64,000 nucleotides of DNA. Source: Thermoplasmata archaeon. GTDB taxonomy: Archaea > Thermoplasmatota > Thermoplasmata > Lutacidiplasmatales > UBA184. Location of the stretch: assembly GCA_050749685.1 (NCBI GenBank), contig JBOGRS010000002.1, positions 3,881 through 67,880 of the forward strand, in the 5' to 3' direction. Each line of letters opens with the position of its first letter. Positions within the stretch are counted from its first letter, which is position 1. Below are positions 38,135 to 63,396 of the stretch, piece after piece. Under the pieces are notes generated by a model. That model did no database searches, was not told the DNA's origin, and saw only the letters and a program-made list of their open reading frames with translations. Position numbers and translations under genes: made by a program.

Positions 38135-38538
38135 GTTCCGCGCTCCAACCGGGCGACCTCTCCCTCGACCCATGCGCGGAACTCGGATGCGGGCAGATCG
38201 AGGAGCCGACGCTCGTCCTCGGCGCTCGTGTGCGCGAGCGTTCCGTGGCCCAGCTCGCGGTGCAGCGTCGCGATCGTGGCGACGATCGTCTGGCGACCGA
38301 GGCGCCCGGTGGTGAACGCGTCGCGCAGCGCGACCAGGGGATCCCCCGACAGCGGGGGAAGGGGGGCGACCGGGCGTCGCACCTTCGGCCAGAGCTCCTG
38401 CGCCGCGAGCGCCGCGGCCGCGATGGCGGCCAGGGTGGCGGCCGGTACGGCGGTCGACAGATTGCCCCCCGCCCATCCGGCCGCGGCGAGGCCGACGATG
38501 ACCACCCCGACCCAAAACCAGCGAGGCAGCTCGATCAT
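38131..38538 (-). CDS. small membrane protein (MoxR/DUF58 cluster)
   Basis: ATG at 38538 (MIELPRWFWVGVVIVGLAAAGWAGG...). ATGA overlap with the upstream gene and GTGA overlap with the DUF58 gene. Confidence 0.5.
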   Translation of the reverse strand: MIELPRWFWVGVVIVGLAAAGWAGGNLSTAVPAATLAAIAAAALAAQELWPKVRRPVAPLPPLSGDPLVALRDAFTTGRLGRQTIVATIATLHRELGHGTLAHTSAEDERRLLDLPASEFRAWVEGEVARLERGT

Positions 38539-39482
38539 GTCGCCTTCCGTGGGTGGCGATCGAGGTCGGAGAGGGCCCGGGTGAGGGAGGCGCGTGCGCG
38601 CTCGACCGATGCGATGGGGATCGGGTGGGGCGAGTAGCGGGCCTCCTCGAAGAGCAGGGTGAGCTCGTGGGAGGTCGCGGGCGTGACGCCCAAGTGGACC
38701 GTGCACTCGCGCTCGATCTCCCGCGGCGTGAGGCTCGCGAGGTCGAACGGGCCGTCCTCGATGCGGCTGAGGAGACGTGCATACGCCGCGACAATCCGGG
38801 AACGCGGGTCGGCGTCGGGATCGGCGTCCAAACCCTCGAGCGCGAGCCCGATCGTGGCGCGAGCGCTCGGCGTCGCGCCCCGACCGGTGCCTCGGGCCTC
38901 CCGATCGCGATGGGCGGCGATCAGGAAGGGGGTGACGACCGTCGCCACGACGAGCCCCCCGACCAGGATCGCCAGGTACTCCACCCACCCGGGGACTCCT
39001 CCGGATTCCAGCGGCACCCCGAAGCCGTTCCCGGTCCCGTTCGTCCCGCTCCCCCCCGACGAGGACCCGGTCCCGTTGGCGGCCGGTGGCGGAGCCGATC
39101 CCCCGACCCCGGCGAACCCGTGGCCGAACTCTCGCAGGAGGATCGCGATGGCGATCGTGGCGATGAACACGAGGAGGACCGCGGCGATGGCGAAGTTGGG
39201 GTACGCGACGCGGTCCTTGAGGCGGACGGCGATCCGCCAGCCCGCAACCCCGATGAGGACGAAACCGACCAGCTCGATCCCGAGCACGACCGTGCTGCCC
39301 GGCGTTCCCGTCGCGCCGGTGACCACTTGGGGAGGAGGGGGGATGACGGGGGCGGCGAGGAGCGAGGCCGCCGCTCCGAACGCGACCGCCGAGAGGACGA
39401 AGAGGGCGATCGCGGGAGAGAAGCGCGCGGGGGTGCGGACCTTTGGGGGTGCCGCTCCAGCGGTGCCCGTATCGGCGTTCAT
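38535..39482 (-). CDS. DUF4129 domain membrane protein
   Basis: Four TM helices with a Gly/Ser/Asn-rich loop. The C-terminal IVAAYARLLSRIEDGPFDLASLTPREIERE matches DUF4129, a common MoxR/DUF58 neighbour. Confidence 0.6.
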   Translation of the reverse strand: MNADTGTAGAAPPKVRTPARFSPAIALFVLSAVAFGAAASLLAAPVIPPPPQVVTGATGTPGSTVVLGIELVGFVLIGVAGWRIAVRLKDRVAYPNFAIAAVLLVFIATIAIAILLREFGHGFAGVGGSAPPPAANGTGSSSGGSGTNGTGNGFGVPLESGGVPGWVEYLAILVGGLVVATVVTPFLIAAHRDREARGTGRGATPSARATIGLALEGLDADPDADPRSRIVAAYARLLSRIEDGPFDLASLTPREIERECTVHLGVTPATSHELTLLFEEARYSPHPIPIASVERARASLTRALSDLDRHPRKAT

Positions 39483-40436: not shown

Positions 40437-40871
40437 TTAGAGGCGGATGCGCAGGTCCGACTTCTTACGGAGATAGCGCTGTTCGTCTTCGGGCGTGAGG
40501 TCCCAGAGGAGGTCCTCGAGGTCGGGGATGTTGCGGAGGAACTCGGCCTTGCTCTTCGTGAGCATCAGGTGCTCGAAGCGTCGGCGGGCGAGGTAGTAGG
40601 ACCCGACCAGGTAGGCGCCGATGATCGATACGATCGGGCCGGCGAGGACGAAGACGAGGTTGTAGTTGGGACCGTTCGAAGAGCTCTGGTCGGTGACCGC
40701 ATCGATCGAACGAAAAACGTAGCTCGTGTTGAGCGGAGTGAACGCACCGACCGCAAGGACGGTCATGAAGACCCCGACCGCGAGGACCACGATCGACAGC
40801 GCGAAGCGCTGCGCCCGAAGGAAGTGGCGGAAGCGCCGCTCGAACGGTACGCGCTCCTCGTCCCGGGCCAT
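40437..40871 (-). CDS. hypothetical membrane protein
   Basis: Two TM helices. Visibly lower GC and more Lys/Asn than its neighbours. Confidence 0.5.
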   Translation of the reverse strand: MARDEERVPFERRFRHFLRAQRFALSIVVLAVGVFMTVLAVGAFTPLNTSYVFRSIDAVTDQSSSNGPNYNLVFVLAGPIVSIIGAYLVGSYYLARRRFEHLMLTKSKAEFLRNIPDLEDLLWDLTPEDEQRYLRKKSDLRIRL

Positions 40872-43631: not shown

Positions 43632-43705
43632 GCGGGCATAGTGTAGTCTGGTTATCACATAGCCTTGCCAAGGCTATGACCCGGGTTCAAATCCCGGTGC
43701 CCGCA
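43632..43705 (+). tRNA. tRNA-Gly (anticodon GCC)
   Basis: Cloverleaf traced by hand. Acceptor GCGGGCA/UGCCCGC, anticodon arm UAGCC-UUGCCAA-GGCUA, T arm CCGGG-UUCAAAU-CCCGG, discriminator A. No CCA encoded. Confidence 0.9.
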
Positions 43706-43948: not shown

Positions 43949-46900
43949 TCACGTGCAGTTGCTGGCGCACGCGATCGACGAGGTCACGAGCGACGGGATG
44001 GAGAGACCGAGGCCCGCAAGCCCGAGGGTGATCCCCGCCGCATCCGCGATCGAGGTCTGCGACGCCTCGTCGGCGACCTCGGTGCTCGGATACAACTGAA
44101 CGATCACGCTGATCGCGGCCAGAACCACGCCGGCGGCGGACAGGATGACCTGCGCGAGCGTGTCCCCCACCGCGAGCGCGATGACGGACGCGACCAGCGC
44201 GAGGAAGCCGATGGCCAGGCCGACGATGTAGTTGCCGTCGATCGATTGCGTGAGGTAGGTGAAGAGCAGGTCCGCGAGCCCTTGGAAGAACGTCAGCACC
44301 GCGTTGACGATCCCCTCCCCGAGCTGGGCGCCCGAGTTGTTCGCGAGGAAGTCGATCGTGGTCGAGAACGGGTCGGTCCCTCCGAAGTTCGGAACGATGG
44401 TCTGCAAGGATGTGAGGATCGAGCCGGCGGCGAGCAACGCGGCGAGCCCTCCGGCGACGATGCCGGCGATGACCGCCTGCACCGCCGTGGACGCCCCTTC
44501 CGTCGCCGGGGTCGCGGTGCCTAGGCTCACGACGTCGATCACGTACATCACGATCGCCACGATCGCGAAGATCCCACCGATGAGGCCGGCGGCCGAATCG
44601 AGGAAGATCGCGATGTCGTTGCCCGCTCCGCTGAGATCGAGCGGCGATAAGATCGGTCCGGAGAGGTTGAACGTCGTGAAGATGTTCTGCATCGACCCGT
44701 TGTAGGCGCTCGAGGCGATCGCCCCGGTTCCGAGCAGGATGGAGAGGAGCGGGAGCGCGATGTAGGCGATCGCGGTCCCGAACGCCGTTTCCAACGCGTT
44801 CTTGATGGTCGTGAACAGCTTGGTGAGCTGGTCCTTCACCCACTGGAGGATGAAGTTGAGGGCGGAGAGGATCGCGTTGATCGCCGACTTGATCGCGGAG
44901 ATCGCCGCGTTCCAGGCCCCGACGACCCACTGGCCGATCTCCTTGGCGAGATTGACGATGAAGTTCGCCACCGCGAGGACGACCGAGACGATCGCGTCCA
45001 CGACCGAAACGATGATCGCGCCGAGGGCCTGCCAGAAGTTCTGCGGCGGGACCCCGACGGCGCTGTTGTAGCCGCCGAGCGGGAAGTACGGCGCGGCGTA
45101 CGCGACGCTCCCGTCCACCCCAAGGAGCTCGAATTGCAGCTGGCTCAGCGCCGTGAAGCCGCCCGTCGCGGCGCCCGTCGAGTTCACCGGCTGCAGGGCC
45201 CGGATGAGCAGGCCCGCGCACGTCGTGTCGATGGTCGCGGTCAGGCTCCCGGCGATGTCCATCGCGCTCTGCCCCGTGCGGTTCGAGAACTGCGCCAGGC
45301 TGAGGCAGGGCAGCCGCGTGAGCTGGCCATTGTCGAGGATCGTGCTGAAGGTGGAGTTGCCGAAGGCGGTCCGGCTGACGAGCAGGAGGTTCTGGCCCGC
45401 GACGAGCGGCGTCCCCGGGACGCTCCCCCCGACGATGTCGAGGTAGAACGCGTAGAAGTGCTGGTCCCCGTTGTAGTGCGGACCGTATCCGGGGATGTTC
45501 TGGACCTCGCCGGTCGAGTTGAGCAGCGTCACCGGCATCCGTGCGAGCGCGTAGACCTGGAAGACCACCGAAAAGCCTCCCTGGTTGTAGGTGTGGCTCC
45601 CCGAGGCGGGGTCGCTCGAGAACGTCATTGACGTGCTCGCGGCGGACCCGCTCCCGAGGGAGTAGTCCTGGTAGAGAGCGAGGCTGATCTTGATCGTCGA
45701 CGCCGTCGGATCGACGGGAAGCTGGTAGCCGACGTAGTACGAGTAGGACCAGTGGACGCAGGTGTCCCCGAACGAATAGTCGTTCGAGCCTCCGACCGTC
45801 GGCGTGTACATCGATGGCGAGCCGGGATAGCTTGATGCCTGGATCTGGACGACACCGCCGGCGTTCGAATCGGCGCCGAAATCGAAGATCGAGATGCACC
45901 CGCTCGTCGCCGTCTTGAGGTAGACGCCGAGGATCTTCGGGCCGCTCGTCGGGTTGACGGCGAGGCTGTCGAGTGCACCGTTGGTCCCGGTGCTCCCCGT
46001 CGTAGGGTTGAGCGGACCGGCGTAGGCGAGCCCGTCCCAGGGGTAGGTGGAGGCCTCCGACGCGACGTAGGCGTTGGCGGAGGACGAGAGGGCGTGGTTC
46101 GCCGTGGTATCGTAGATGGCGCGGCCGTAGGCCTTCATGCCGTCGGTGAGGGTGGGGTCCGAGAAGTGGACCGCCCACGGCGGGATGTGGAACTGGCGAT
46201 CCCCGTAGTAGGTAGCCCACGCGTGGGGATCGGACACCGTGCAGCCGCTCGCCGATCCCCGCGCGTAGCTCACGTTGACGGAGGGGTAGTAGGGGAGGCC
46301 CTGGACGACGGAGAGCTTCCAGTACTGCTCCGTGTACGGGTAGTAGTTCACCGTCGAGTAGGACATCGTCCGGCCGTCGAACACGGTGTAGTTCGATCCG
46401 ATAGGTTCGGTGCAGTTGAAAACCGGGATCGAGATCTCCCCACCGGTCACGAGGCCGGAGGCGTACGGGTCCGCACGGGTAGGATCAGTGTAGTACTGGA
46501 TGACGATCTGAGCGTTCTCAATCGTTCCCGGACCGCCCGAGACGGCAAGGTCCCAGTTGGCGCGGGACTGGAACTCCGCGAGGGTGAGGCCCGAGGACGA
46601 ATAGTTCGTCACGGCCCCACCGACGGGGGTGTTGTTGAACAGCGGGATCTCGCTCACCGGAGCGGTCGGGGTACCCAACGCGACCGTCGTTCCGAGGACG
46701 GGGAAGACCCCGCCCCCGATGTTGATGAGCTCGACGGAGAGCGACGCGAGGTCCGGTGAGACGATCTCGTCGTAGAGCGTCACGGAGCGGATCGACGCGC
46801 TCGAGCCCGGATGCTGTACCGAGGGGATGGTCACGACGCCCGAGGTGGCGAAGCTCGAGACCTCCGTCGACGAGAAACCGTCGCTGAACTGATGGGAACC

Positions 46901-49900
46901 GTCCAGGATGCTGTCCCCGGCGGAGTTGGGGTCGAGCGGGTTCGAGACGTAACCCGTGACCGTCCCGAAGACCTCCTGGAAGTCGGTGAGGCCATCATGG
47001 TCGGTGTCGGCGTTGCTCGCCTGCCCACCGACGATGAACGTCCGCATGAAGTCCGTGAGCCCCGTTCCCGAGTTCGCGTCGTTGCCCGGGGCGAGGTGCA
47101 GGAAGAGCGTGGCGTACTCGTCCGGGATCCCGTCGCCATCCCAGTTGGGAACGGAGATGAGCTGGGCCGAGGAGGTCGCGGTCCGTCCGTCCGAGGCGCT
47201 CACCTGGACGGCCAGGACCGGGTTCCCAGATTCCGTGTAGGTGTGCCCGACCGTGCCTACGAGGGAACCGGAGGTGGTGGTGCCACCGGAGCCGTCGCCG
47301 AAGGTCCACGCGTAGCTCAAGGACAGGGACACGTTCGCCCGGTCCGCCGCGGAACCGAGGACGATCGCCATGAACGGCGCGGTGTGGTTGACACCGTAGA
47401 CCGTGAACCCATCGTAGGGCAGGACGACCGTCAGTGGCTGGTTCACGACCGTGACGGTCGCGCTCGCCTCACCCACTGGACTACCGTCCTCGGTCGACAG
47501 CGTGAGCGTTTGGGTGTAGGTTCCGGGAGCCGCGTAGGTGTGTCCGGTCGTGAGTCCGCCGGTCGAGGGGGTCCCGTCGCCCCAATCCCACACGCCGCTC
47601 ATGCGGGCGAGGTCCGCTGGCGCGCCTCCCACCGAGCGCGGCGCAAAGAGCGCGTACTCGTCGACCGTCACGGATCGATCGGAGAGGGTGACCCCGACGG
47701 ACGCGTCCGAAACGACCACGTTGTGCGTCGTCGACGCCGAGAGACCCTCATCGTCCGTGACGGTGAGCGTGACCGGGAACGTTCCCTCGCTCGTGAAGGT
47801 GTGCTCGACCATCGGACCGGCTCCGACGAGCGCACCGCTCGGCTGGCCGTCGCCGAACGTCCAGTGGAACGAGAGGTTCCCCCCCGGCGCGGCACCGGCA
47901 TAGTCGACGCTGCTCGTGGCGTCGAACGCGACGGAGGTGAACTCCGCGATCGAGCCGCCGGGTCCGGTGAAGGTCGGGATCGGCGGCGCATTCGTGACGT
48001 TCACGAACTGCCAACTGACCGTGGTGTACCCGAGAGCGCCATCGGACACGTAGAGGGCGAGCGCGTAGCTGGTCGCCGAGTATCGGTAGAGGTGCGTGAT
48101 CGTCGCGAGCGGGCCGACGCCGGACTGGTGGCTCGTCCCGCCATCCCCGAACGCCCAGGTCGCGCCGAAGGAGGTCGAGCTGTAATTGAGCGAGGTGATC
48201 GTCGCATTGAGAGGGATGTGCGGCACCTGAGCGATGCGGTCCGGGACGACCAGCTGGACGGTGGGAGCCACGTCCGCGACGCTCGCGTCCCCGCTCTCCA
48301 CGACGGGGATGGTGGACGCAAAGCTCCCGGCATAGTCGTCCTCCACGCTCAGGCCGAGCTCGTAGGAGCCCCCCGGAAGCCAGCGGTGGGCGACGGCGAT
48401 CGTCCCGAGGGTGGGTTCCGCCGTGAGCGGAATCGCCGTCGCGATGCGGGACGACGCCCCGTCCCCGAAGTTCCAGATCGTCGTGAGATGGGTCCGCGAC
48501 GGCGAGAAGACCTGCGCCTTGAGGAAAACGAGCTGTCCCACGGACGCTGCGTTCCCGTCGATGTTCCAGATGGTGGTGGCCGTCTGGGAGGCGATGAACC
48601 GATGCGTGTAGAGCTGGGACGAACAGATCGAACTCGAGTAGGTGGTCGCGCACGAACCTCCATTGCCCCAGAAGTCGACGGTGAGGTCGACCGGGTTCGC
48701 GCCCTTGATCGTGCCGCTCGACGGTGCGACGTAGGCGATCCGGATCGTGTCGTTGTCCGCGAGCTGGATGGGAACGTTCGTGAGCGTGAGGACATCGTTC
48801 CTCGGGTCGCCGTGGGCGCGCACGAGAAGGCCGTATGCGATGAGGCGCCCGTTCTCGAGCACACTCACGTTGAGCGTGTTGCCGGGGGTCCCCTTCATCG
48901 TGAGGGTGATGTTGGCGAGCGTGTAGGCGGAGTAGAGGCCGACGTTCGGGTTCACGTCGGACACCACGAGCGAGGTGGAGTCGTGCGACGTGAGCGACTC
49001 CTCGTCCGTGACCGCGAGGTTGGCGGTGTAGGTCCCGGGCTCGAAGTACGCCGTCCGGCCGATGACCCCGTTCGACGCGCTGGCGTCCGAGACGTTCGGG
49101 ACGGACGTGGACCACGAGTAGTTGAGACCGGGAAGGTCCGTTGGGACGTCGACGGTGGCCGTACCGTTGAGCGGGATCACGGCTCCGACCACGTACGGAG
49201 CCACCGGCGTCGCGCCCGCGCTGGCGCCCGGCGGGGGGTTCACGATCGTGACCGTGGTCTCGGTCAAGGCCGTCGCGCCCTCTTCGTCGGTGACCCTTAG
49301 GGTGACGGCGTACGTCCCGCTCTCCGTGTAAACGTGGGACGCGGTGATCCCGGCACCCAGGGTCCCGTCGCCGAAGTCCCACCAGTAGCGCAGGTGAGGA
49401 ACATCCGGTGGGACATCCGTCGTGGCCGCCCCCGAGACGGTCACGTTGGTGTCCTCGGCGTACGTGTCGAGGGTGAGCGAGGACGTCGTGAAGGTGATCA
49501 CGGGATTGGGGAGAGGGTTCACGACCCTGATGTCGGAGCGGAAGCTCTGGTTGGCCGCGCCGGTGCGGTTGTCGTAGACGGTGACCCCCACCACGTAGTT
49601 TCCGGCATCACGGTAGGCGTGCGCGACCGGGTTGCCCCACGTCGAGTTGTTGTCGCCGAAGTCCCAGCGGTAGGCGAGGGCGTCGGACTCGTACGAGGCA
49701 GGCGTGGTCGTCGCGGCCCCGGTGAACTCGATCGGCGAGTCCTCGTTCGCCGTCGTGACGTTGGTCGTGATCGACGGGTGGAGCACGGGAGGAAGAACGT
49801 TCGCGACATCGGTCGCGATCTGGTAGTCTCCTTCCGCGTCGTAGACCGTGAGGGAGATCGCGAACGAGCCGGAACGTGCGTAGGTGTGGGTGAACGATAC

Positions 49901-50974
49901 CTCCTCCGAGGAGGTGCAGATCGATCCGGCCGAGGCGCAACCGGCCGGCGGTGGGACGATCGACTTGTCGTAGCCGATGGCGCCGGTCGAATTCGTCTGC
50001 CCGTAGAACCAGAGGAGGAGGTATCCCGAAAAGGTACCCGCGACCGTGGAGGTCGGCACTCCGCCCGTGATGTTGGCAAAGACCGTCATCGGGACCCCGG
50101 CCGTGGCCGTCGTGGGGTTCATCCCGCTCACCGAGATCGCGGGGGTGGTCAGCGCTCGGGCCGCACCGACGGCCTGGAAGCCCCCGATGACCATGAGGAG
50201 GCAGAGGGCGAAGGCGGTCGTGGCCCGAAGCGCGATGCTGGGAGGTCTACGGGCCGATCGCCCCCCCGAGCGCGCGGTCCGTTCGCCGGCCGGCCCCGGA
50301 CCCTGGTCCCGAGCAAGGGGCGTCCACGCGGAGCTCCGAGAGGATGGCGCCGGCCCGACCCCAGCCCGCCCGGCAGGGCGGGGGGAGGCGCGGCGAGGTG
50401 CTCGGGCCAAGCTACGCAGCTCACGGTGCACGGCGAAGAGCGCGGTGAGGTCGTCCGCTCGCGCCGCGCTCGAGAGGAGGACGAGCGCCGACCCGATCGC
50501 GGCGTCGCGGGCAGGCGAGGGTGAGGCGCGGCGTATCCTGCGGCCCATCGCGATGGCCGATCGAAGGATCGTCGTACGCGCACGCTGCCGGACGATGCGC
50601 AATTCCTCGCGGGCGCGTCGCTCCGCCTCGCGGAGCCCGAATCCATCTCCCGAGTCCGAGGCGTGCATCGCGGAGGCGGAGGGCCCGGAATCCAACACGG
50701 TGGACGGCATCGCCTCGCGGGCGGCCGACCGGATCCGCGTCCCCTCCTCCCGCAACGCGAAGATCGGCGATGCGCCCTCCGTGAGGCGGCCGGCCAGGCC
50801 TTCCGCCAATCCCAGAAGCTGGAGCGCGGCGTCGGTCCGCCCGGCGTGAGCTAATTGATCGATCGCATGCCCGACCCGAGCGATCGGGAAGGCAATTCCT
50901 GCGGCCCGGAGCGACGCGGCCACATCGACAAGTCGTTCCTGGCGGGTCTGGATTTCGCGCTCCACGTCGAACAT
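43949..50974 (-). CDS. giant (2341 aa) surface glycoprotein-like protein with many PKD repeats, TSP3-like Ca-binding motifs and a polytopic C-terminal membrane domain
   Basis: Repeated PKD signatures (WDFGDG, WNFGDG, WTFGDG, WAFGDG, WDWGDG). DxDxDGxxD motifs (DTDHDGLTDFQE, WDGDGIPDE). Dozens of N-x-S/T sequons. A signal-anchor-like segment RSARRPPSIALRATTAFALCLLMVIGGFQAVGAARA follows a 260-aa N-terminal region. Seven or eight hydrophobic helices fill the last 450 aa. ATG at 50974 lies about 24 nt downstream of a TATA-like element. Confidence 0.8.
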   Translation of the reverse strand: MFDVEREIQTRQERLVDVAASLRAAGIAFPIARVGHAIDQLAHAGRTDAALQLLGLAEGLAGRLTEGASPIFALREEGTRIRSAAREAMPSTVLDSGPSASAMHASDSGDGFGLREAERRAREELRIVRQRARTTILRSAIAMGRRIRRASPSPARDAAIGSALVLLSSAARADDLTALFAVHRELRSLARAPRRASPRPAGRAGVGPAPSSRSSAWTPLARDQGPGPAGERTARSGGRSARRPPSIALRATTAFALCLLMVIGGFQAVGAARALTTPAISVSGMNPTTATAGVPMTVFANITGGVPTSTVAGTFSGYLLLWFYGQTNSTGAIGYDKSIVPPPAGCASAGSICTSSEEVSFTHTYARSGSFAISLTVYDAEGDYQIATDVANVLPPVLHPSITTNVTTANEDSPIEFTGAATTTPASYESDALAYRWDFGDNNSTWGNPVAHAYRDAGNYVVGVTVYDNRTGAANQSFRSDIRVVNPLPNPVITFTTSSLTLDTYAEDTNVTVSGAATTDVPPDVPHLRYWWDFGDGTLGAGITASHVYTESGTYAVTLRVTDEEGATALTETTVTIVNPPPGASAGATPVAPYVVGAVIPLNGTATVDVPTDLPGLNYSWSTSVPNVSDASASNGVIGRTAYFEPGTYTANLAVTDEESLTSHDSTSLVVSDVNPNVGLYSAYTLANITLTMKGTPGNTLNVSVLENGRLIAYGLLVRAHGDPRNDVLTLTNVPIQLADNDTIRIAYVAPSSGTIKGANPVDLTVDFWGNGGSCATTYSSSICSSQLYTHRFIASQTATTIWNIDGNAASVGQLVFLKAQVFSPSRTHLTTIWNFGDGASSRIATAIPLTAEPTLGTIAVAHRWLPGGSYELGLSVEDDYAGSFASTIPVVESGDASVADVAPTVQLVVPDRIAQVPHIPLNATITSLNYSSTSFGATWAFGDGGTSHQSGVGPLATITHLYRYSATSYALALYVSDGALGYTTVSWQFVNVTNAPPIPTFTGPGGSIAEFTSVAFDATSSVDYAGAAPGGNLSFHWTFGDGQPSGALVGAGPMVEHTFTSEGTFPVTLTVTDDEGLSASTTHNVVVSDASVGVTLSDRSVTVDEYALFAPRSVGGAPADLARMSGVWDWGDGTPSTGGLTTGHTYAAPGTYTQTLTLSTEDGSPVGEASATVTVVNQPLTVVLPYDGFTVYGVNHTAPFMAIVLGSAADRANVSLSLSYAWTFGDGSGGTTTSGSLVGTVGHTYTESGNPVLAVQVSASDGRTATSSAQLISVPNWDGDGIPDEYATLFLHLAPGNDANSGTGLTDFMRTFIVGGQASNADTDHDGLTDFQEVFGTVTGYVSNPLDPNSAGDSILDGSHQFSDGFSSTEVSSFATSGVVTIPSVQHPGSSASIRSVTLYDEIVSPDLASLSVELINIGGGVFPVLGTTVALGTPTAPVSEIPLFNNTPVGGAVTNYSSSGLTLAEFQSRANWDLAVSGGPGTIENAQIVIQYYTDPTRADPYASGLVTGGEISIPVFNCTEPIGSNYTVFDGRTMSYSTVNYYPYTEQYWKLSVVQGLPYYPSVNVSYARGSASGCTVSDPHAWATYYGDRQFHIPPWAVHFSDPTLTDGMKAYGRAIYDTTANHALSSSANAYVASEASTYPWDGLAYAGPLNPTTGSTGTNGALDSLAVNPTSGPKILGVYLKTATSGCISIFDFGADSNAGGVVQIQASSYPGSPSMYTPTVGGSNDYSFGDTCVHWSYSYYVGYQLPVDPTASTIKISLALYQDYSLGSGSAASTSMTFSSDPASGSHTYNQGGFSVVFQVYALARMPVTLLNSTGEVQNIPGYGPHYNGDQHFYAFYLDIVGGSVPGTPLVAGQNLLLVSRTAFGNSTFSTILDNGQLTRLPCLSLAQFSNRTGQSAMDIAGSLTATIDTTCAGLLIRALQPVNSTGAATGGFTALSQLQFELLGVDGSVAYAAPYFPLGGYNSAVGVPPQNFWQALGAIIVSVVDAIVSVVLAVANFIVNLAKEIGQWVVGAWNAAISAIKSAINAILSALNFILQWVKDQLTKLFTTIKNALETAFGTAIAYIALPLLSILLGTGAIASSAYNGSMQNIFTTFNLSGPILSPLDLSGAGNDIAIFLDSAAGLIGGIFAIVAIVMYVIDVVSLGTATPATEGASTAVQAVIAGIVAGGLAALLAAGSILTSLQTIVPNFGGTDPFSTTIDFLANNSGAQLGEGIVNAVLTFFQGLADLLFTYLTQSIDGNYIVGLAIGFLALVASVIALAVGDTLAQVILSAAGVVLAAISVIVQLYPSTEVADEASQTSIADAAGITLGLAGLGLSIPSLVTSSIACASNCT

Positions 50975-50984
50975 TTCCGTCCTT

Positions 50985-51000
50985 CCTAATTCGTATACGG
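50985..51000 (-). promoter_or_regulatory. TATA-like element for the giant gene (leaderless spacing)
   Basis: Minus-strand ccGTATACgaattagg sits about 24 nt upstream of the ATG. AT-rich island. Confidence 0.4.
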
Positions 51001-51323
51001 GCGAAGGGGATCGACTCCCGCGGTCGATCTCGAGCCGTAGAAGGCTCGCGCTCGAGCCCGGGTTCGAGCCGCACGTCCGGGATCCCCGGTCCCGGCGTGA
51101 GGGATGGGGGGAGGCTCCCCCAGACCTCGAATGCTGAACGACGATCCCCTTACCGGTGAGGGCATCAAGCCCCCGGCTTAAACCTTTGGGAGCGTCTTGT
51201 CAACAATATGGCAACGGAGCGACTTCGCAAGCTCTCGAACGCGCCCCGGGGCGTTCCGGACCGATTCCGGCCGTCCGCCCGACGCCGGAAGCGGGCCGCC
51301 GCGCCCGAGGGACTCCGGCCTGC

Positions 51324-52043
51324 CTACCAATCGACCGAGGCGGTCCGGCTCCACTCTTGGACGATTGCCTCTCCTGCGGAGGTGAGCTGTAAAGTTTCGG
51401 ACTCCCCCTCCAGGACGACGAGAGAGTTCACCCGCGCCCACAGAAGGGTCGCCGCGAGCTCCTTCGGGATCTCGGCGCGGGTGCCGAATACGAAAAGCTC
51501 CAGGAGGCGAGCGCCCGGATCCGAGGATCGGGAGAGCGATACGTGCGTGTGGTGGCTCCCGAGCTCCCGCAGCGTGCGCGGCCAATCGCCCTGGGGGATC
51601 CGTCGAAGGTCGTACGGGCAGATGAACCGTGACTCCTCGCGGGGCTGCTCCTGGAACCATGCCTCGTACTCGAGATGCTCCGGGACCGTTTCGGAGGTCC
51701 AGTACTGGCTGATCGTGTCGGCCCCGGCGGAAACACCTCCCGGATGCGCACCGAGGAACTCGCGGATCGCCGGCGCGGGCCGCAGCTTGCCCTCCATCGG
51801 GCTCACCTGCTCGCCCTCGAGGACATGCACACATCCGATGCACGCGGGGGCGGCCTCGACGAGCCGTTCGCTGTAGTAGTTCGCGAGACCGGGGTCGGTC
51901 ACCCAGAACGACGGCGCCTTTCCTTCCGGCGTTCCAGCGAGGAACCGGACTGCGTGATCCGCCGCCTCCGTGCGGTCCGCGTGGAGGCTGAGGCAATGCG
52001 CGCCGAGCGGAAGCTCTTCGAGGTCCGAAATGACTTCGGGCAA
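51324..52043 (-). CDS. hypothetical protein, possibly MEDS-like sensory domain
   Basis: LPLGAHCLSLHADRTEAADHAVRFLAG resembles the MEDS N-terminal motif. TTG at 52043 lies about 30 nt downstream of a CTTTTTAT TATA-like element inside the maximal ORF (which reaches 52151). Confidence 0.35.
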   Translation of the reverse strand: MPEVISDLEELPLGAHCLSLHADRTEAADHAVRFLAGTPEGKAPSFWVTDPGLANYYSERLVEAAPACIGCVHVLEGEQVSPMEGKLRPAPAIREFLGAHPGGVSAGADTISQYWTSETVPEHLEYEAWFQEQPREESRFICPYDLRRIPQGDWPRTLRELGSHHTHVSLSRSSDPGARLLELFVFGTRAEIPKELAATLLWARVNSLVVLEGESETLQLTSAGEAIVQEWSRTASVDW

Positions 52044-52211
52044 CGGTGATCCTTCTTTCACGGGGGGCGGATAAAAAGCCTTGTCCGAAAGCTGCGGGAA
52101 CCGCGCGCCGTGAGAATCCACCGCCCCCTCCACGGTGCATCGTCGCGGCACGCCCGTGAGTGCGACGACCCCGTCGAGCTGGATCGGCGCGGTCGACGGG
52201 GGTCCGGGAGG

Positions 52212-53937: not shown

Positions 53938-54046
53938 TCCGCACGGCTCTCCCCGTCCCGTCGGTGGGCGGCGCGCCCGCCGGACGATCTCCCGGGCCAT
54001 CGTCTCGCCAGCGCGATGTTTATCCTGACGATGTGATTCCGCCGAC

Positions 54047-54919
54047 ATGGCCCTCGTACGCCGGGTGACCGTTCGGGGCAATCGGTCGTTCGAGTACGTC
54101 TCGAAGGGGAGAGGGCCGGCCACCCTCCTCGTCCACCCCGGCGGTCCCGGGATGACCTACCACTACCTCCGCGGCCTCCTCCAGCTCGCGACGACGCACC
54201 TTCGGGTGATCCTGTTCAACCCTCGCGGCGTGGGGAAGTCCTGGACTCCGGCCCGAACGAACGCGTACACGGTCCCGAACCTCGCGGAGGACGTCGAGGC
54301 CCTGCGCGCCGCCTTCGACATCGACGAACTGCATCTCCTCGGGTACTCCGCGGGTGGGTTCGTCGCCCTCGAGTACGCCCACCGCTATCAGAAGAACCTC
54401 ACCTCCTTGCTCCTCGCGGCGACCGCCGGGAGCGCGGCCGAGGTCCGTCAGGCCAACCGATTGATCCGCGAGCACGCCACGCCCCCCCAGCACCGCCGAC
54501 TCGTCGAGCTCGAGCGCGCGCGCAAGTTCGACTCGAAGGAGTACGCCGAGCTCACCGAGGAGATCGCGCGACCGTTCGCCCGTCGGTTCCTGATGGGCAC
54601 GCCGGGCGATCTCAAGGCGACCAAGACCCACGCGGTCGTCTACCGCACGATGATGACGCGCACCGGGGACGAGTTCGCGTTGGATGGGACGATCGCCCGT
54701 TGGGACGGTCAGAAGTACTACTCGAAGATCGAGGTGCCGACGCTCGTCCTCGTCGGCCGCTACGACTTCTTCCTCGAAGCGTCCCGGGAGATGGCGGACC
54801 GCATCGTGCCGGCGCACCTTCGGGTCCTGCCGCAGAGCAGCCACCTCGCCATCCTCGAGCAGCCGAGAGAGTTCCTGAAGACGATCCGCGAGTTCCTCGT
54901 GGACGTGACGGGCGACTGA
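54047..54919 (+). CDS. alpha/beta hydrolase (proline iminopeptidase-like)
   Basis: Nucleophile elbow GYSAGG. HPGGPG oxyanion region. Confidence 0.8.
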   Translation: MALVRRVTVRGNRSFEYVSKGRGPATLLVHPGGPGMTYHYLRGLLQLATTHLRVILFNPRGVGKSWTPARTNAYTVPNLAEDVEALRAAFDIDELHLLGYSAGGFVALEYAHRYQKNLTSLLLAATAGSAAEVRQANRLIREHATPPQHRRLVELERARKFDSKEYAELTEEIARPFARRFLMGTPGDLKATKTHAVVYRTMMTRTGDEFALDGTIARWDGQKYYSKIEVPTLVLVGRYDFFLEASREMADRIVPAHLRVLPQSSHLAILEQPREFLKTIREFLVDVTGD

Positions 54920-54988
54920 AGCCCGCCGCCGGGGGGGCCACCCCCAGCATCCCCTTAAATCACGGGTCGCGCCATCGCCCCACCGCCG

Positions 54989-56233
54989 ATGGCCCTGCTC
55001 ACGCCCGACGACACCCTCGTCCTGCTCGAGGTGTTCATCTTCCTCGCCCTCGCCCAGGTCGTCCACACGCTCACGAGCCGCATCGGCCTTCCCGAGATCG
55101 TCGCGGACCTTCTGGTCGGCATGACCCTCGGCGTCTACGCGCTCGGGGGGACCCTCGACGGCTGGCTCGGCGTCCCGCTGTTTCAGCAAGGGTCGGGGCT
55201 CCTCCTGTTCGCCGACCTCTCGGCGATCCTCCTCCTCTTCGTGGCCGGACTCGGAGGAGGATTCTCGTCGCTGCGCCGTGCCGGCCGATACGCCGTCGCG
55301 GCGGCCATCGCCGGAGACCTCGTCCCGTTCGGCCTCGTCTTCCTCCTCATGTCGAGGATCTATCCGCTCGACGCCGCGCTCCTCATCGCGGTCGCCGCGG
55401 CCGCGACGAGCGCCGCGGTCGCGGCGTCGCTCATCCAGAGCGCCCGTCTGACCCACGCTCACGGCGCGCAGTTCCTGATGAACGTCGCCGCGCTCGACGA
55501 CGTGGTCGCCCTGGTTCTCCTCTCCGTCGTCCTCGCGACGTTCGGGGGCGAGCTCAACGTGCTCGACATCGCCCGTAGCGCGACCTTGTCGGTGGCGGGA
55601 TGGCTCGTCCTCCTCCTCGTCGCGGTCGTCGTCGTGCCACGCCTCTTGCGGGTACGCGTGCTCCGCGAGGTCGAGAACCTGCCGTTCGCGCTCCTGTTCG
55701 TCGTGATCGCCGTCGTCCTCGCCCTCGGGTTCTCGCCGATCGTCGGTGCGTACATCGCCGGCCTCGCCGTCGCCGAGAGCGTCGTCGCCCAACGTACCCG
55801 CCGCACTGCCGGAGTGATGCTGATGGTGTTCGGCGCGCTCTTCTTCGTCGTCGTCGGCTCCGAGTTCAACGTGCACTTGCTCACGGACCCGACCCTCCTC
55901 ATCGCGGCCCTGGCGATCGCGGTCATCGCGGCGCTCGGAAAGGTGGTCGGGGTCTATCCGTTCGCCCGGGTGCGTCTCGGGACGATGCCCCCCGCCCGGG
56001 CCGTCGCCGTCGGCATGATCCCCCGCGGCGAGATCGGCCTCATCGTCGGAGGGATCGGCCTCTCCACGGGCGTCCTCACCCAGGAGATGTTCGGCGAGGT
56101 GATCCTGATGGCCGTCGTCACGACGCTCGCGGGCGCGCTCCTGTTCCGGCGCTATGCGGGGGCGCTCGGACCGCCGTCCGAAGAGCTGCTCGAGAGCTCC
56201 GCGCGTCCTCACGGGACCGCCCCGGGGCGATGA
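54989..56233 (+). CDS. cation:proton antiporter (CPA1/CPA2 Na+/H+ exchanger family)
   Basis: Eleven or more TM helices and conserved Asp-containing TM segments typical of Kef/NhaP-type exchangers. Confidence 0.8.
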   Translation: MALLTPDDTLVLLEVFIFLALAQVVHTLTSRIGLPEIVADLLVGMTLGVYALGGTLDGWLGVPLFQQGSGLLLFADLSAILLLFVAGLGGGFSSLRRAGRYAVAAAIAGDLVPFGLVFLLMSRIYPLDAALLIAVAAAATSAAVAASLIQSARLTHAHGAQFLMNVAALDDVVALVLLSVVLATFGGELNVLDIARSATLSVAGWLVLLLVAVVVVPRLLRVRVLREVENLPFALLFVVIAVVLALGFSPIVGAYIAGLAVAESVVAQRTRRTAGVMLMVFGALFFVVVGSEFNVHLLTDPTLLIAALAIAVIAALGKVVGVYPFARVRLGTMPPARAVAVGMIPRGEIGLIVGGIGLSTGVLTQEMFGEVILMAVVTTLAGALLFRRYAGALGPPSEELLESSARPHGTAPGR

Positions 56234-56276
56234 GTCGGATCGGCCCGCCGCGCCCGGTTCGTACGAACGGGGTTTA

Positions 56277-57002
56277 ATGCCGCGCGCCCCACCGGCCGTC
56301 GTTTCGGGAGCCCACGTGGACGCGGAAGCGATGGTCATCGCGGGATCGCTCGCCGGCCTCTTCCTCCTGCTCGCCACGTTGACGGTCCGTGGCTTCCTCA
56401 AGTTCGGCCGGAGCCGGCGTCGCGTCGATCTCGCGTGGGCCGCGGGCATTGCCCTCGCGGCCGCGGCGATGGCCGTCGAGCTCGTCGTCTTTCTGGGTGT
56501 CGTTTCGAGCCCGATCCTCCAGGCCTACGTCTTCTTCTCCGCCGCGATCGTCGGCGTCCTCTCGCTCGGAGCGACCCGCGTTCTCCGTAGCCCCCGCCTC
56601 GAGAGCGCGTACACGGCGTGGACGCTCGCGACCTGCGCCGTCACCGGCTTCTTTAGTGCGATCACACCGCTTCCCGCCACGATGGTGTCGCAGGGGATCA
56701 TCACCGGCAACCCGCCGGTCCTGCTCCTCGTCGTCTCCTCGCTCGTCACCGGACCCGCGACGATCGTCCTGGTCGCCGCGTCGATCCTCGCCCTCCGCCG
56801 TTCCTGGAGGTGGCAGACACTCCTGCTCGTGGGGGGTGCCCTCGTCCTCGGCGCGGGCGGCACGCTTTACATCGCGTCGTTCCCGGTCGCGCTCTACTAT
56901 GCCGAGTTCTTCGGGATCATCCTGCTCTTCCTCGGCCTGATCAGCCTCCCCCAACCGACGGCCGCGCCCTCGGCGACGGGGACGCTGGCGGGCGCCGAAT
57001 AG
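56277..57002 (+). CDS. hypothetical membrane protein
   Basis: Six hydrophobic helices. ATG at 56277; an ATG at 56331 is an alternative start. Confidence 0.5.
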
Positions 57003-63273: not shown

Positions 63274-63396
63274 GGCTGACAGCTTTCCACGGTTCCCGTA
63301 GGCTCGCGCACTTCAGTACCGCGCGGAACGCCAGTGGGCTTAACTGCCGGGTTCGGAATGAGACCGGGTGTTTCCCCACCGCTTTGGCCGTCAGCC
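63274..63396 (-). rRNA. rrf: 5S ribosomal RNA, unlinked to 16S/23S
   Basis: Minus-strand RNA GGCUGACGGCC AAAGCGGUGGGGAAACACCCGGUCUCAUUCCGAACCCGGCAGUUAAGCCCACUGGCGUUCCGCGCGGUACUGAAGUGCGCGAGCCUACGGGAACCGUGGAAA GCUGUCAGCC. It contains the universal 5S blocks GGGAAACACC, CAUUCCGAAC, GUUAAGCC, GUACUG, GCGAG and ACGGGAA. A 10-bp terminal helix I closes it. Confidence 0.85.

Follow-up and report, generated by a model that had tools for sequence, protein, structure and literature searches.

A giant PKD-array protein with a hydrophobic multi-segment C-terminus belongs to a family of predicted surface proteins in Thermoplasmata

The 64,000-nucleotide stretch of a Thermoplasmata archaeon analysed here (assembly GCA_050749685.1, contig JBOGRS010000002.1; hereafter the window) carries on its minus strand, at 43949..50974, an open reading frame (ORF) that starts with ATG and encodes a protein of 2341 amino acids (aa), with a mass of 241.8 kDa and an isoelectric point (pI) of 4.6; the stop codon is at 43949-43951. 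We find that the protein joins an array of PKD domains to a hydrophobic C-terminus of several segments and that it belongs to a family of such proteins. ORF listing and translation confirm its extent as given in a first-pass annotation made from the sequence alone, and the Thermoplasmata-like cell assumed there agrees with the organism label in NCBI, where the identical product is recorded as MGI0131599.1, 'MAG: PKD domain-containing protein [Thermoplasmata archaeon]' (MAG, metagenome-assembled genome). Because long spurious ORFs abound in DNA of about 70% GC, as in this window, the coding signal was checked. From about codon 277 to the stop the GC content of the three codon positions is 0.57/0.52/0.91 (GC3 0.91), and codon usage, scored by a model trained on the Pfam-confirmed genes of the window, reaches log-odds of 0.5-0.76 bits per codon, the highest among the six frames. 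The ORF contains no tandem repeats, nor any direct-repeat family longer than 49 nt (65-73% identity); the PKD units have diverged at the DNA level and repeat collapse is therefore no concern. The identical protein is found on two contigs, the 69.7-kb NCBI MAG contig and a 44.0-kb contig from an independent Logan assembly of SRR27067714. Mis-assembly, including the chimera of repeats against which the annotation had advised a check, is unlikely.

Residues 277-1277 (47144..50146, on the minus strand like all parts of the protein) hold nine PKD domains (Pfam PKD_4 E 1.2e-74, PKD E 2.2e-53). Nine of the ten segments of ~95 aa in this region match Pfam PKD/PKD_4, seven of them above a Pfam cutoff, while two segments, the first and the seventh, score below Pfam's own cutoffs. 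The annotation had predicted at least five WxFGDG cores; there are six strict ones and one WDFGDN. Between PKD4 and PKD5 lies a non-PKD insert of ~120 aa (aa 673-795; 48590..48958) that matches no family and is well conserved in the relative P0003. N-x-S/T sequons number 33, against 18.1 +/- 3.9 in shuffled sequences (z 3.8) and 13 for the reversed motif; none falls within aa 1-276, and the relatives show enrichment at z 4-9. The ectodomain is acidic (pI 4.3). The dozens of sequons that the annotation reported are thus present, and the heavy N-glycosylation it read from them is predicted.

The array is followed at aa 1278-1360 (46895..47143) by TSP3-like acidic motifs of the Ca2+-binding type, WDGDGIPDEY, DTDHDGLTDFQE and NPLDPNSAGDS. 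Only one of these, DTDHDGLTDFQE at aa 1323, is a canonical DxDxDGxxDxxE motif, the other two being degenerate. Since the stretch aligns to proteins bearing TSP3_bac/Binary_toxB (P0001, E 6.7e-11) yet stays below threshold for Pfam TSP3_bac (PF18884; 10.5 bits against a cutoff of 25, E 0.6), we call it TSP3-like and not a scored member. A scan of GTDB species representatives returned matches to this stretch only, in unrelated bacteria. The Ca2+-binding repeats of the annotation therefore come down to one canonical motif with degenerate neighbours, and the plural was generous; likewise, its extracellular region of ~1600 aa with PKD, TSP3 and sequons holds for the PKD array and the sequons, the TSP3 element being weaker than stated.

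The remainder of the ectodomain was modelled with AlphaFold2 (AF2) on a 13-sequence family alignment (A1), which gave a mean predicted local distance difference test score (pLDDT) of 56 and was confident only for the beta domains. A beta-sandwich domain is predicted at aa 1399-1493 (46496..46780; residues 1-95 of the model, pLDDT ~50-80); it ends in the family motif GTW.L.V....G.I and has no Pfam match. The most conserved block of the family occupies aa 1488-1683 (45926..46513). In a second alignment (A2, 31 sequences) its mean column identity is 48% with 26 invariant columns, and its motifs are YYTNP..ADP, WPYTE.YYKLSV.QGVPY, YLGDADFGI.PWNAHAAGD..LTNGMKALG and PLNPTALSTAGDG..DS. Nearest to the membrane, aa 1678-1977 (45044..45943) form a beta-rich region modelled at pLDDT 75-89. 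Foldseek comparison of the AF2 model with the PDB returned C2 domains at E ~4e-4 and 8-15% identity, the predicted structure has the eight-stranded beta-sandwich fold of a C2 domain, and this C2-like sandwich would lie within the confident membrane-proximal region. Pfam C2 has no match in the protein, its pieces or 13 relatives; no viral structure model matches the AF2 model, and no PDB sequence matches the protein or either profile (A1, A2).

The C-terminal hydrophobic domain, aa 1978-2341 (43952..45043), has a grand average of hydropathy of 1.06 and contains six to seven segments of transmembrane (TM) grade, an amphipathic stretch, five Lys and no Arg. Kyte-Doolittle hydropathy in 19-aa windows peaks at 2.0-2.7 around residues 1984, 2068, 2131, 2168, 2250 and 2276, with a weak peak of 1.7 at 2312. 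To our knowledge soluble coiled coils do not reach values of this kind, and the peaks speak for membrane segments against the soluble coiled coil that the annotation had named as its alternative. Residues 2002-2056 (~50 aa) are taken as amphipathic because their hydrophobic moment is high. The domain is thus multi-segmented and very hydrophobic, as had been proposed, at ~364 aa and six to seven segments in place of 450 aa and seven to eight helices, the rest of that region being beta-rich ectodomain. The AIxxAIxxIL-type repeats of the annotation are a local pattern in the first TM and the amphipathic stretch and not an internal duplication, which was looked for within the domain and not found. 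Small-xxx-small motifs are mildly enriched (53 against 43.5 +/- 4.5).

Our topology reading assumes that the ectodomain is outside and that the first TM crosses inwards. All five Lys of the domain lie in the amphipathic stretch after the first TM, where the family as a whole has its highest Lys/Arg count and lacks sequons. Two sequons fall in the loop that follows (aa 2087-2121, predicted outer loop 2), for which the family average is 1.0 per sequence; loop 4 (aa 2192-2243) also carries sequons, and the short predicted inner loop 3 has none. This alternation of sequons and Lys/Arg would be the pattern of a resident polytopic domain. The chain ends, as the annotation had read it, in CASNCT (...IACASNCT, 43952-43969). 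A Cys occurs within the last six residues in 16 of 42 family members, ten of them with a terminal Cys, in proteins whose overall Cys content is just 0.3-1.3%; besides the window protein the set comprises P0003, P0009, P0011, P0012, P0013, P0018, P0022, P0024, P0025, P0027, P0030, P0033, P0039, P0041 and L016. In the clade of the window protein the tails have the form C-x(3-6)-C around N-x-T, CASNCT being an example. The Cys tail may be lipidated, bind a metal or form a disulfide. If it is glycosylated and closed by a disulfide, it would lie outside and imply an even number of TMs, whereas a lipidated or metal-binding Cys would place the tail inside.

The weak point of the gene model is its N-terminal 245 aa. 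The extension of aa 1-244 (50243..50974) is Ala/Arg-rich with a pI of 11.7, and its translation is uncertain: over the first 245 residues Ala makes up 20% and Arg 16%, and the codon score, 0.5-0.76 bits per codon in the rest of the gene, falls to +0.17 over aa 1-120 and to -0.14 over aa 121-245. It resembles only the extension of P0003, and that weakly (E 2e-4 over 68 aa, against ~50% identity elsewhere), and is absent from all other relatives, in most of which the first hydrophobic segment falls among residues 1-60. The relative in L016, 49.5% identical and as close as P0003, has a stop codon ~100 codons upstream of its TM. In-frame alternatives, a GTG at codon 182 and a TTG at codon 189, would leave a tail of ~56-63 aa before the TM, nearer to that of the relatives. 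The long form is favoured by locally AT-richer DNA 5' of the ATG at 50974 (50975..51005), by a GTATAC (50993-50998) that begins 24 nt upstream of it and a purine-rich AGGAAGG (50981-50987) 6 nt upstream, both read from the sequence only, and by two gene callers having picked the same start. We regard the choice as uncertain; the long and the shorter start are both possible. Of the leaderless full-length start suggested in the annotation, the GTATAC is in place, but because AGGAAGG sits 6 nt upstream of the ATG, leaderless initiation is not established. The GTG and TTG codons weaken the claim that no internal start exists near the signal anchor, and a cytoplasmic N-terminal domain of 260 aa, with little coding signal and no counterpart as a family feature, is not upheld. 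The single signal-anchor-like segment is present as described: aa 245-276 (50147..50242; IALRATTAFALCLLMVIGGFQAVGAARA, followed by LTTP) are hydrophobic, preceded by the Arg-rich flank RSGGRSARRPPS and ending in an A-x-A-like sequence, and would serve as a signal peptide or signal anchor. Relatives carry the equivalent segment at aa ~1-60. Upstream of the gene, a 320-aa ATG ORF (51178-52140, minus) has a codon score of -0.69 and no Pfam match; the best-scoring frame there is 51324-52121 (minus), which is the 265-aa gene called in the Logan contig (L001:1854-2651) and which leaves ~350 nt of non-coding DNA upstream of the ATG at 50974.

The family was found by an exhaustive HMMER search with aa 1290-2341 against 1.84 billion cluster representatives. 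A word-indexed protein search was nearly blind here, missing the query itself and returning nothing for A1 and one fragment for A2, probably because of low-complexity words. HMMER returned 89 proteins at E <= 1e-3 and 32 at E <= 1e-30. About 30 relatives (clusters at 50% identity; P0003-P0032 and L016) are 2050-2380 aa long and collinear over 750-1050 aa, the window protein matching 30 representatives at E 0 to 1e-54, and their parts come in one order: an N-terminal hydrophobic segment, PKD cores (one to seven by motif), the TSP3-like stretch, the conserved block and a hydrophobic C-terminus of two to nine segments, mostly five to eight. The architecture is thus shared by these clusters and, more loosely, by a wider superfamily, and is not unique. 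Where an organism is named it is 'Thermoplasmata archaeon' (MAGs) for every relative, and the database labels are 'PKD domain-containing protein', 'PKD repeat protein' or 'hypothetical protein'. The window protein has the conserved block followed by the module of juxtamembrane domain, first TM and amphipathic helix and by the hydrophobic C-terminus, and the window carries one copy each of block and module (hidden Markov model E 2e-78 and 1.6e-104, respectively). Column identity in A1 is 0.56-0.65 over aa 1488-1683, 0.5-0.6 over aa 1819-1965, 0.54 over the first TM and the start of the amphipathic helix, and 0.31-0.39 over the remaining helices, which are the least conserved part of the family. 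No Pfam match was found over the region equivalent to aa 1399-2341 in 13 members, and Pfam, NCBIfam and PDB sequences offer no family covering either end of the protein. A metagenome scan yielded four loci, and the 2.9 million viral contigs of IMG/VR contain no relative. Matches to PHROG tape-measure families, Baculo_PEP_C and CATASP were judged compositional and set aside.

More distant proteins align only to aa ~1800-2100. This superfamily-wide module, aa 1812-2061 (44792..45541), consists of the juxtamembrane domain, the first TM (FWQALGAIIVSVVDAIVSVVLAV) and the amphipathic helices (KEIGQW...), with the motifs FWQ..G..I.SV..AI in the first TM and EIG.W ... WV.D in the amphipathic helix. 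Six distant proteins were re-aligned (P0043, P0044, P0046, P0051, P0060 and P0069); three have PKD and three TSP3_bac, P0051 has no Pfam match and P0060 was not in the Pfam scan. All six end in several hydrophobic segments; in P0043 and P0069 a signal-like segment is present at the N-terminus as well. P0062 and P0072, which match about the same stretch, carry Big_7 arrays. The module thus occurs on varied giant ectodomains and is therefore best viewed as a reusable anchoring or assembly cassette. Directly upstream of one PKD-family relative, at L009:1-6029 (+) (ENA ERZ27237515 k141_1123705), lies another giant ORF, of which at least 2009 aa are visible. It matches no Pfam domain, carries 35 sequons and the module (profile E 5e-13), and has five hydrophobic segments towards its C-terminus.

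The window is ordinary chromosome, and the large gene stands among housekeeping genes, including those for an aldehyde dehydrogenase, peptide ABC transporter parts, a class I aminoacyl-tRNA synthetase, geranylgeranyl reductase, ETF, a GCD14-type tRNA methyltransferase, and ZIP and Na+/H+ transporters. A tRNA-Gly(GCC) gene (43632-43705, plus) lies 243 nt past the stop of the large ORF in convergent orientation. A complete 5S rRNA gene (63274-63395, minus; 96.5 bits) is present, and 16S and 23S rRNA genes are absent from the whole 64 kb; unlinked rRNA genes have been reported for Thermoplasmata. A few kb downstream lie two small genes for which no link to the large gene was seen, a DUF3198 gene (40437-40871, minus; E 1.5e-8) and a DUF4129 gene (38535-39482, minus; E 1.4e-7). 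An 809-aa ATG ORF (54020-56449, minus) is antisense to the plus-strand genes of an alpha/beta hydrolase (54047-54919) and a Na+/H+ exchanger (54989-56233), and is almost certainly a GC-rich shadow ORF; its length resembles by chance that of an 806-aa DUF87 ATPase beside P0003 in L007. The neighbourhoods of the relatives are unrelated, some lying among molybdopterin genes and that of L011 among housekeeping genes, and a search for conserved neighbouring genes across the relatives found none: the 180-aa upstream and ~175-196-aa downstream ORFs of L009 and L013 are unrelated to each other, as are the upstream ORFs of the window and L007. Mobile-type genes lie by some relatives (HTH regulators, an integrase-like ORF, a DNA methylase, a DDE transposase, a group II intron reverse transcriptase, a resolvase and a DUF87/TrwB-like ATPase; L013:2007-6679, L013:16390-17862, L009:14485-19044 and L007:8824-11244), but not by the others or by the window gene. 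The tRNA-Gly next to the gene and the mobile genes beside certain relatives raised the idea of an integrated mobile element, which was rejected for the window: its genes are housekeeping genes, and no sign of an element was seen on either side.

What, then, does such a protein do? With moderate confidence we regard it as an envelope or adhesion protein that is glycosylated, stabilised by Ca2+ and held by a polytopic anchor of a reusable type. Archaeal surface proteins rich in PKD domains are usually given a part in the envelope or in interaction between cells (PMC5498576, which cites Jing et al. 2002). The N-terminal hydrophobic segment would target the chain to Sec, with cleavage probably between AARA and L. 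Outermost would stand a stalk in which nine Ig-like PKD domains are interrupted by a single beta domain, and below it a short acidic stretch of TSP3-type Ca2+ binding and then the beta sandwich. Further inward the conserved block of ~200 aa, flanked by NP..DP / GDG..DS acidic motifs, would be followed nearest the membrane by the beta region with its C2-like sandwich. In the membrane module, the conserved TM helix would lead to a conserved cytoplasmic amphipathic helix with all five Lys and then to five or six poorly conserved TMs. The ectodomain of ~1700 aa has 29 sequons, many of which would carry glycans, and Ca2+ would stiffen it; the polytopic helical bundle would hold the protein firmly in the membrane, which matters if a rigid wall is absent. 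Its role may be that of a spacer in the envelope or glycocalyx, or of an adhesin through which cells contact each other or a substrate. Since the later helices show little conservation and differ in number between relatives, they fit an anchor better than a channel.

Several observations weigh against this proposal. With 5 Lys/Arg to 19 Asp/Glu, the C-terminal domain has far fewer basic residues than a constitutive polytopic domain would normally show. Hydropathy puts the TM count at six to eight, and the C-terminus may lie on either side. AF2 models the domain as helices only, with low confidence (a single-sequence run on the C-terminal 405 aa, at pLDDT 47, was uninformative), and its confidence for the conserved block is low as well (pLDDT ~40). 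Ca2+ binding is deduced from motifs. Finally, the ~200-aa block and the first TM with its amphipathic helix are conserved more strongly than an anchor or adhesin would explain, which suggests a specific activity or partner.

The first-pass annotation had described the protein as polycystin-1-like, and from this follows a different function, a receptor or channel whose PKD ectodomain senses force or ligand and whose C-terminal helices signal or conduct ions. The likeness stands in so far as tandem extracellular PKD domains are followed by a multi-pass membrane region, in the order of polycystin-1, with a beta sandwich of the C2/PLAT kind near the membrane; the conservation of the first TM and amphipathic helix across the superfamily would also suit a receptor. 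However, the other hallmarks of polycystin-1 were sought and none matched. Pfam searches at E up to 1-10 with the whole protein and with its pieces matched neither REJ nor GPS/GAIN, and 13 relatives had no such match at E up to 0.01; PLAT has no match, the predicted first inner loop being a ~50-aa amphipathic helix instead; and PKD_channel has none in the protein or in the equivalent of aa 1399-2341 in 13 relatives. Whereas polycystin-1 has eleven TM helices, the last six of PKD_channel/TRP type, and a PLAT/LH2 domain in its first cytoplasmic loop, here six to eight helices are predicted, the later ones least conserved and varying in number, no conserved polar or pore-like motif was seen, and the C2-like sandwich would lie outside the cell before the first TM. 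Sequence relation is found only in the PKD domains, beyond which the likeness to polycystin-1 appears to be analogy without homology, and we consider a receptor or channel quite improbable. A YhgE/Pip- or EsaA-type protein, with an N-terminal TM, a large external domain and a C-terminal ABC-2-like TM bundle, would have the same gross layout of N-terminal hydrophobic segment, long ectodomain and several C-terminal TM segments. The annotation had itself named YhgE/Pip as a family that could overturn its reading; Pfam and NCBIfam searches at E up to 1-10 (whole protein and C-terminal piece) and at E up to 0.01 (13 relatives) matched neither YhgE/Pip nor ABC2_membrane, at either end, and this explanation is very improbable. 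That the gene is an artefact, a chimeric repeat assembly or an ORF over-extended in GC-rich DNA, is next to negligible: the first 245 codons with their little coding signal and lack of conservation, and the frequency of spurious ORFs at 70% GC, would fit it, but the strong signal from codon ~277 on, the freedom from long DNA repeats, the identical product on two contigs and three collinear relatives at ~50% identity (two of them full-length) besides the ~30 clusters confine the doubt to the N-terminal extension only.

The acidic, Lys/Arg-poor composition of the C-terminal domain, which holds across the family, would also fit a membrane-active effector that acts in a Ca2+-dependent manner on another membrane, by cell-cell fusion, a contact-dependent pore or exchange of DNA or cytoplasm. 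C2 folds act in perforin and ferlin membrane binding, and domains of both types are among the structure matches; the hydrophobic regions of phage tape-measure proteins match weakly, at the level of composition (phrog_58 E 3e-4), and some relatives lie beside the transposase, reverse transcriptase, resolvase, integrase-like, DNA methylase and DUF87/TrwB-like ATPase genes. Against this, sequons and Lys/Arg are distributed as in a resident polytopic domain, the PHROG matches are far below convincing, neither the viral contigs nor the viral structure models hold a match, and the neighbours are not conserved, being housekeeping genes here and in L011. We consider an effector unlikely. Rather doubtful, too, is the idea that the juxtamembrane domain, first TM, amphipathic helix, C2-like sandwich and acidic motifs together make up a Ca2+-responsive membrane machine of a kind not recognised before, and not a passive anchor. 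If true, such a machine would be common to many giant surface proteins of uncultured archaea and possibly bacteria, and might act where cells touch, by remodelling or fusing membranes, or might pass tension from the ectodomain through the membrane.

For an anchored surface glycoprotein, the closest known kind is the PKD-rich archaeal surface protein. As far as is known, archaeal PKD surface proteins are either secreted or fixed to the cell by one C-terminal TM or by a lipid anchor. The window protein shares with them an N-terminal hydrophobic segment, PKD repeats and a sequon-rich ectodomain, cleavage and glycosylation being predicted. In the PKD envelope proteins of Methanosarcina (Jing et al. 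2002) and the strain-specific ones in PMC5498576, exported, sequon-rich tandem PKD domains likewise go with a presumed role in the envelope and cell-cell contact; here, in contrast, there are in addition a multi-helix hydrophobic end of ~360 aa and ~700 aa of membrane-proximal domains without family assignment. Bacterial Ca2+-stiffened giant adhesins (SiiE and the RTX adhesins; TSP3/dockerin-type, bioRxiv 10.1101/2023.11.21.568195) are a functional parallel as well: they combine long Ig-like arrays with acidic Ca2+ motifs, and their arrays are thought to project a binding surface away from the cell. They differ in being exported by a type I secretion system or anchored in the outer membrane or wall, whereas here a single-membrane archaeon presumably uses Sec and an integral polytopic anchor, and just one to three TSP3-like motifs are present. 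To the C2 domains of synaptotagmin, E-Syt, ferlins, cPLA2 and perforin the identity is 8-15% with no Pfam C2 match, and the domain here is predicted to lie outside the cell. What sets the window protein apart from these kinds is its polytopic C-terminal domain, a juxtamembrane domain of C2-like fold and the ~200-aa block, none of them being in the family databases. The annotation's view that the architecture is undescribed in archaea agrees with a full-text literature search within one library, which returned no paper describing it, an absence of evidence.

These results define a family of Thermoplasmata proteins of 2000-2400 aa for which the databases say only 'PKD domain-containing' or 'hypothetical', ~940 aa of each member lying outside every described domain family, and they remove a tempting but unsupported link to eukaryotic polycystin-1. 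For annotation, the reusable membrane module could be turned into a domain model. It is their surface proteins that determine how uncultured archaea adhere to one another, to minerals and to partners.

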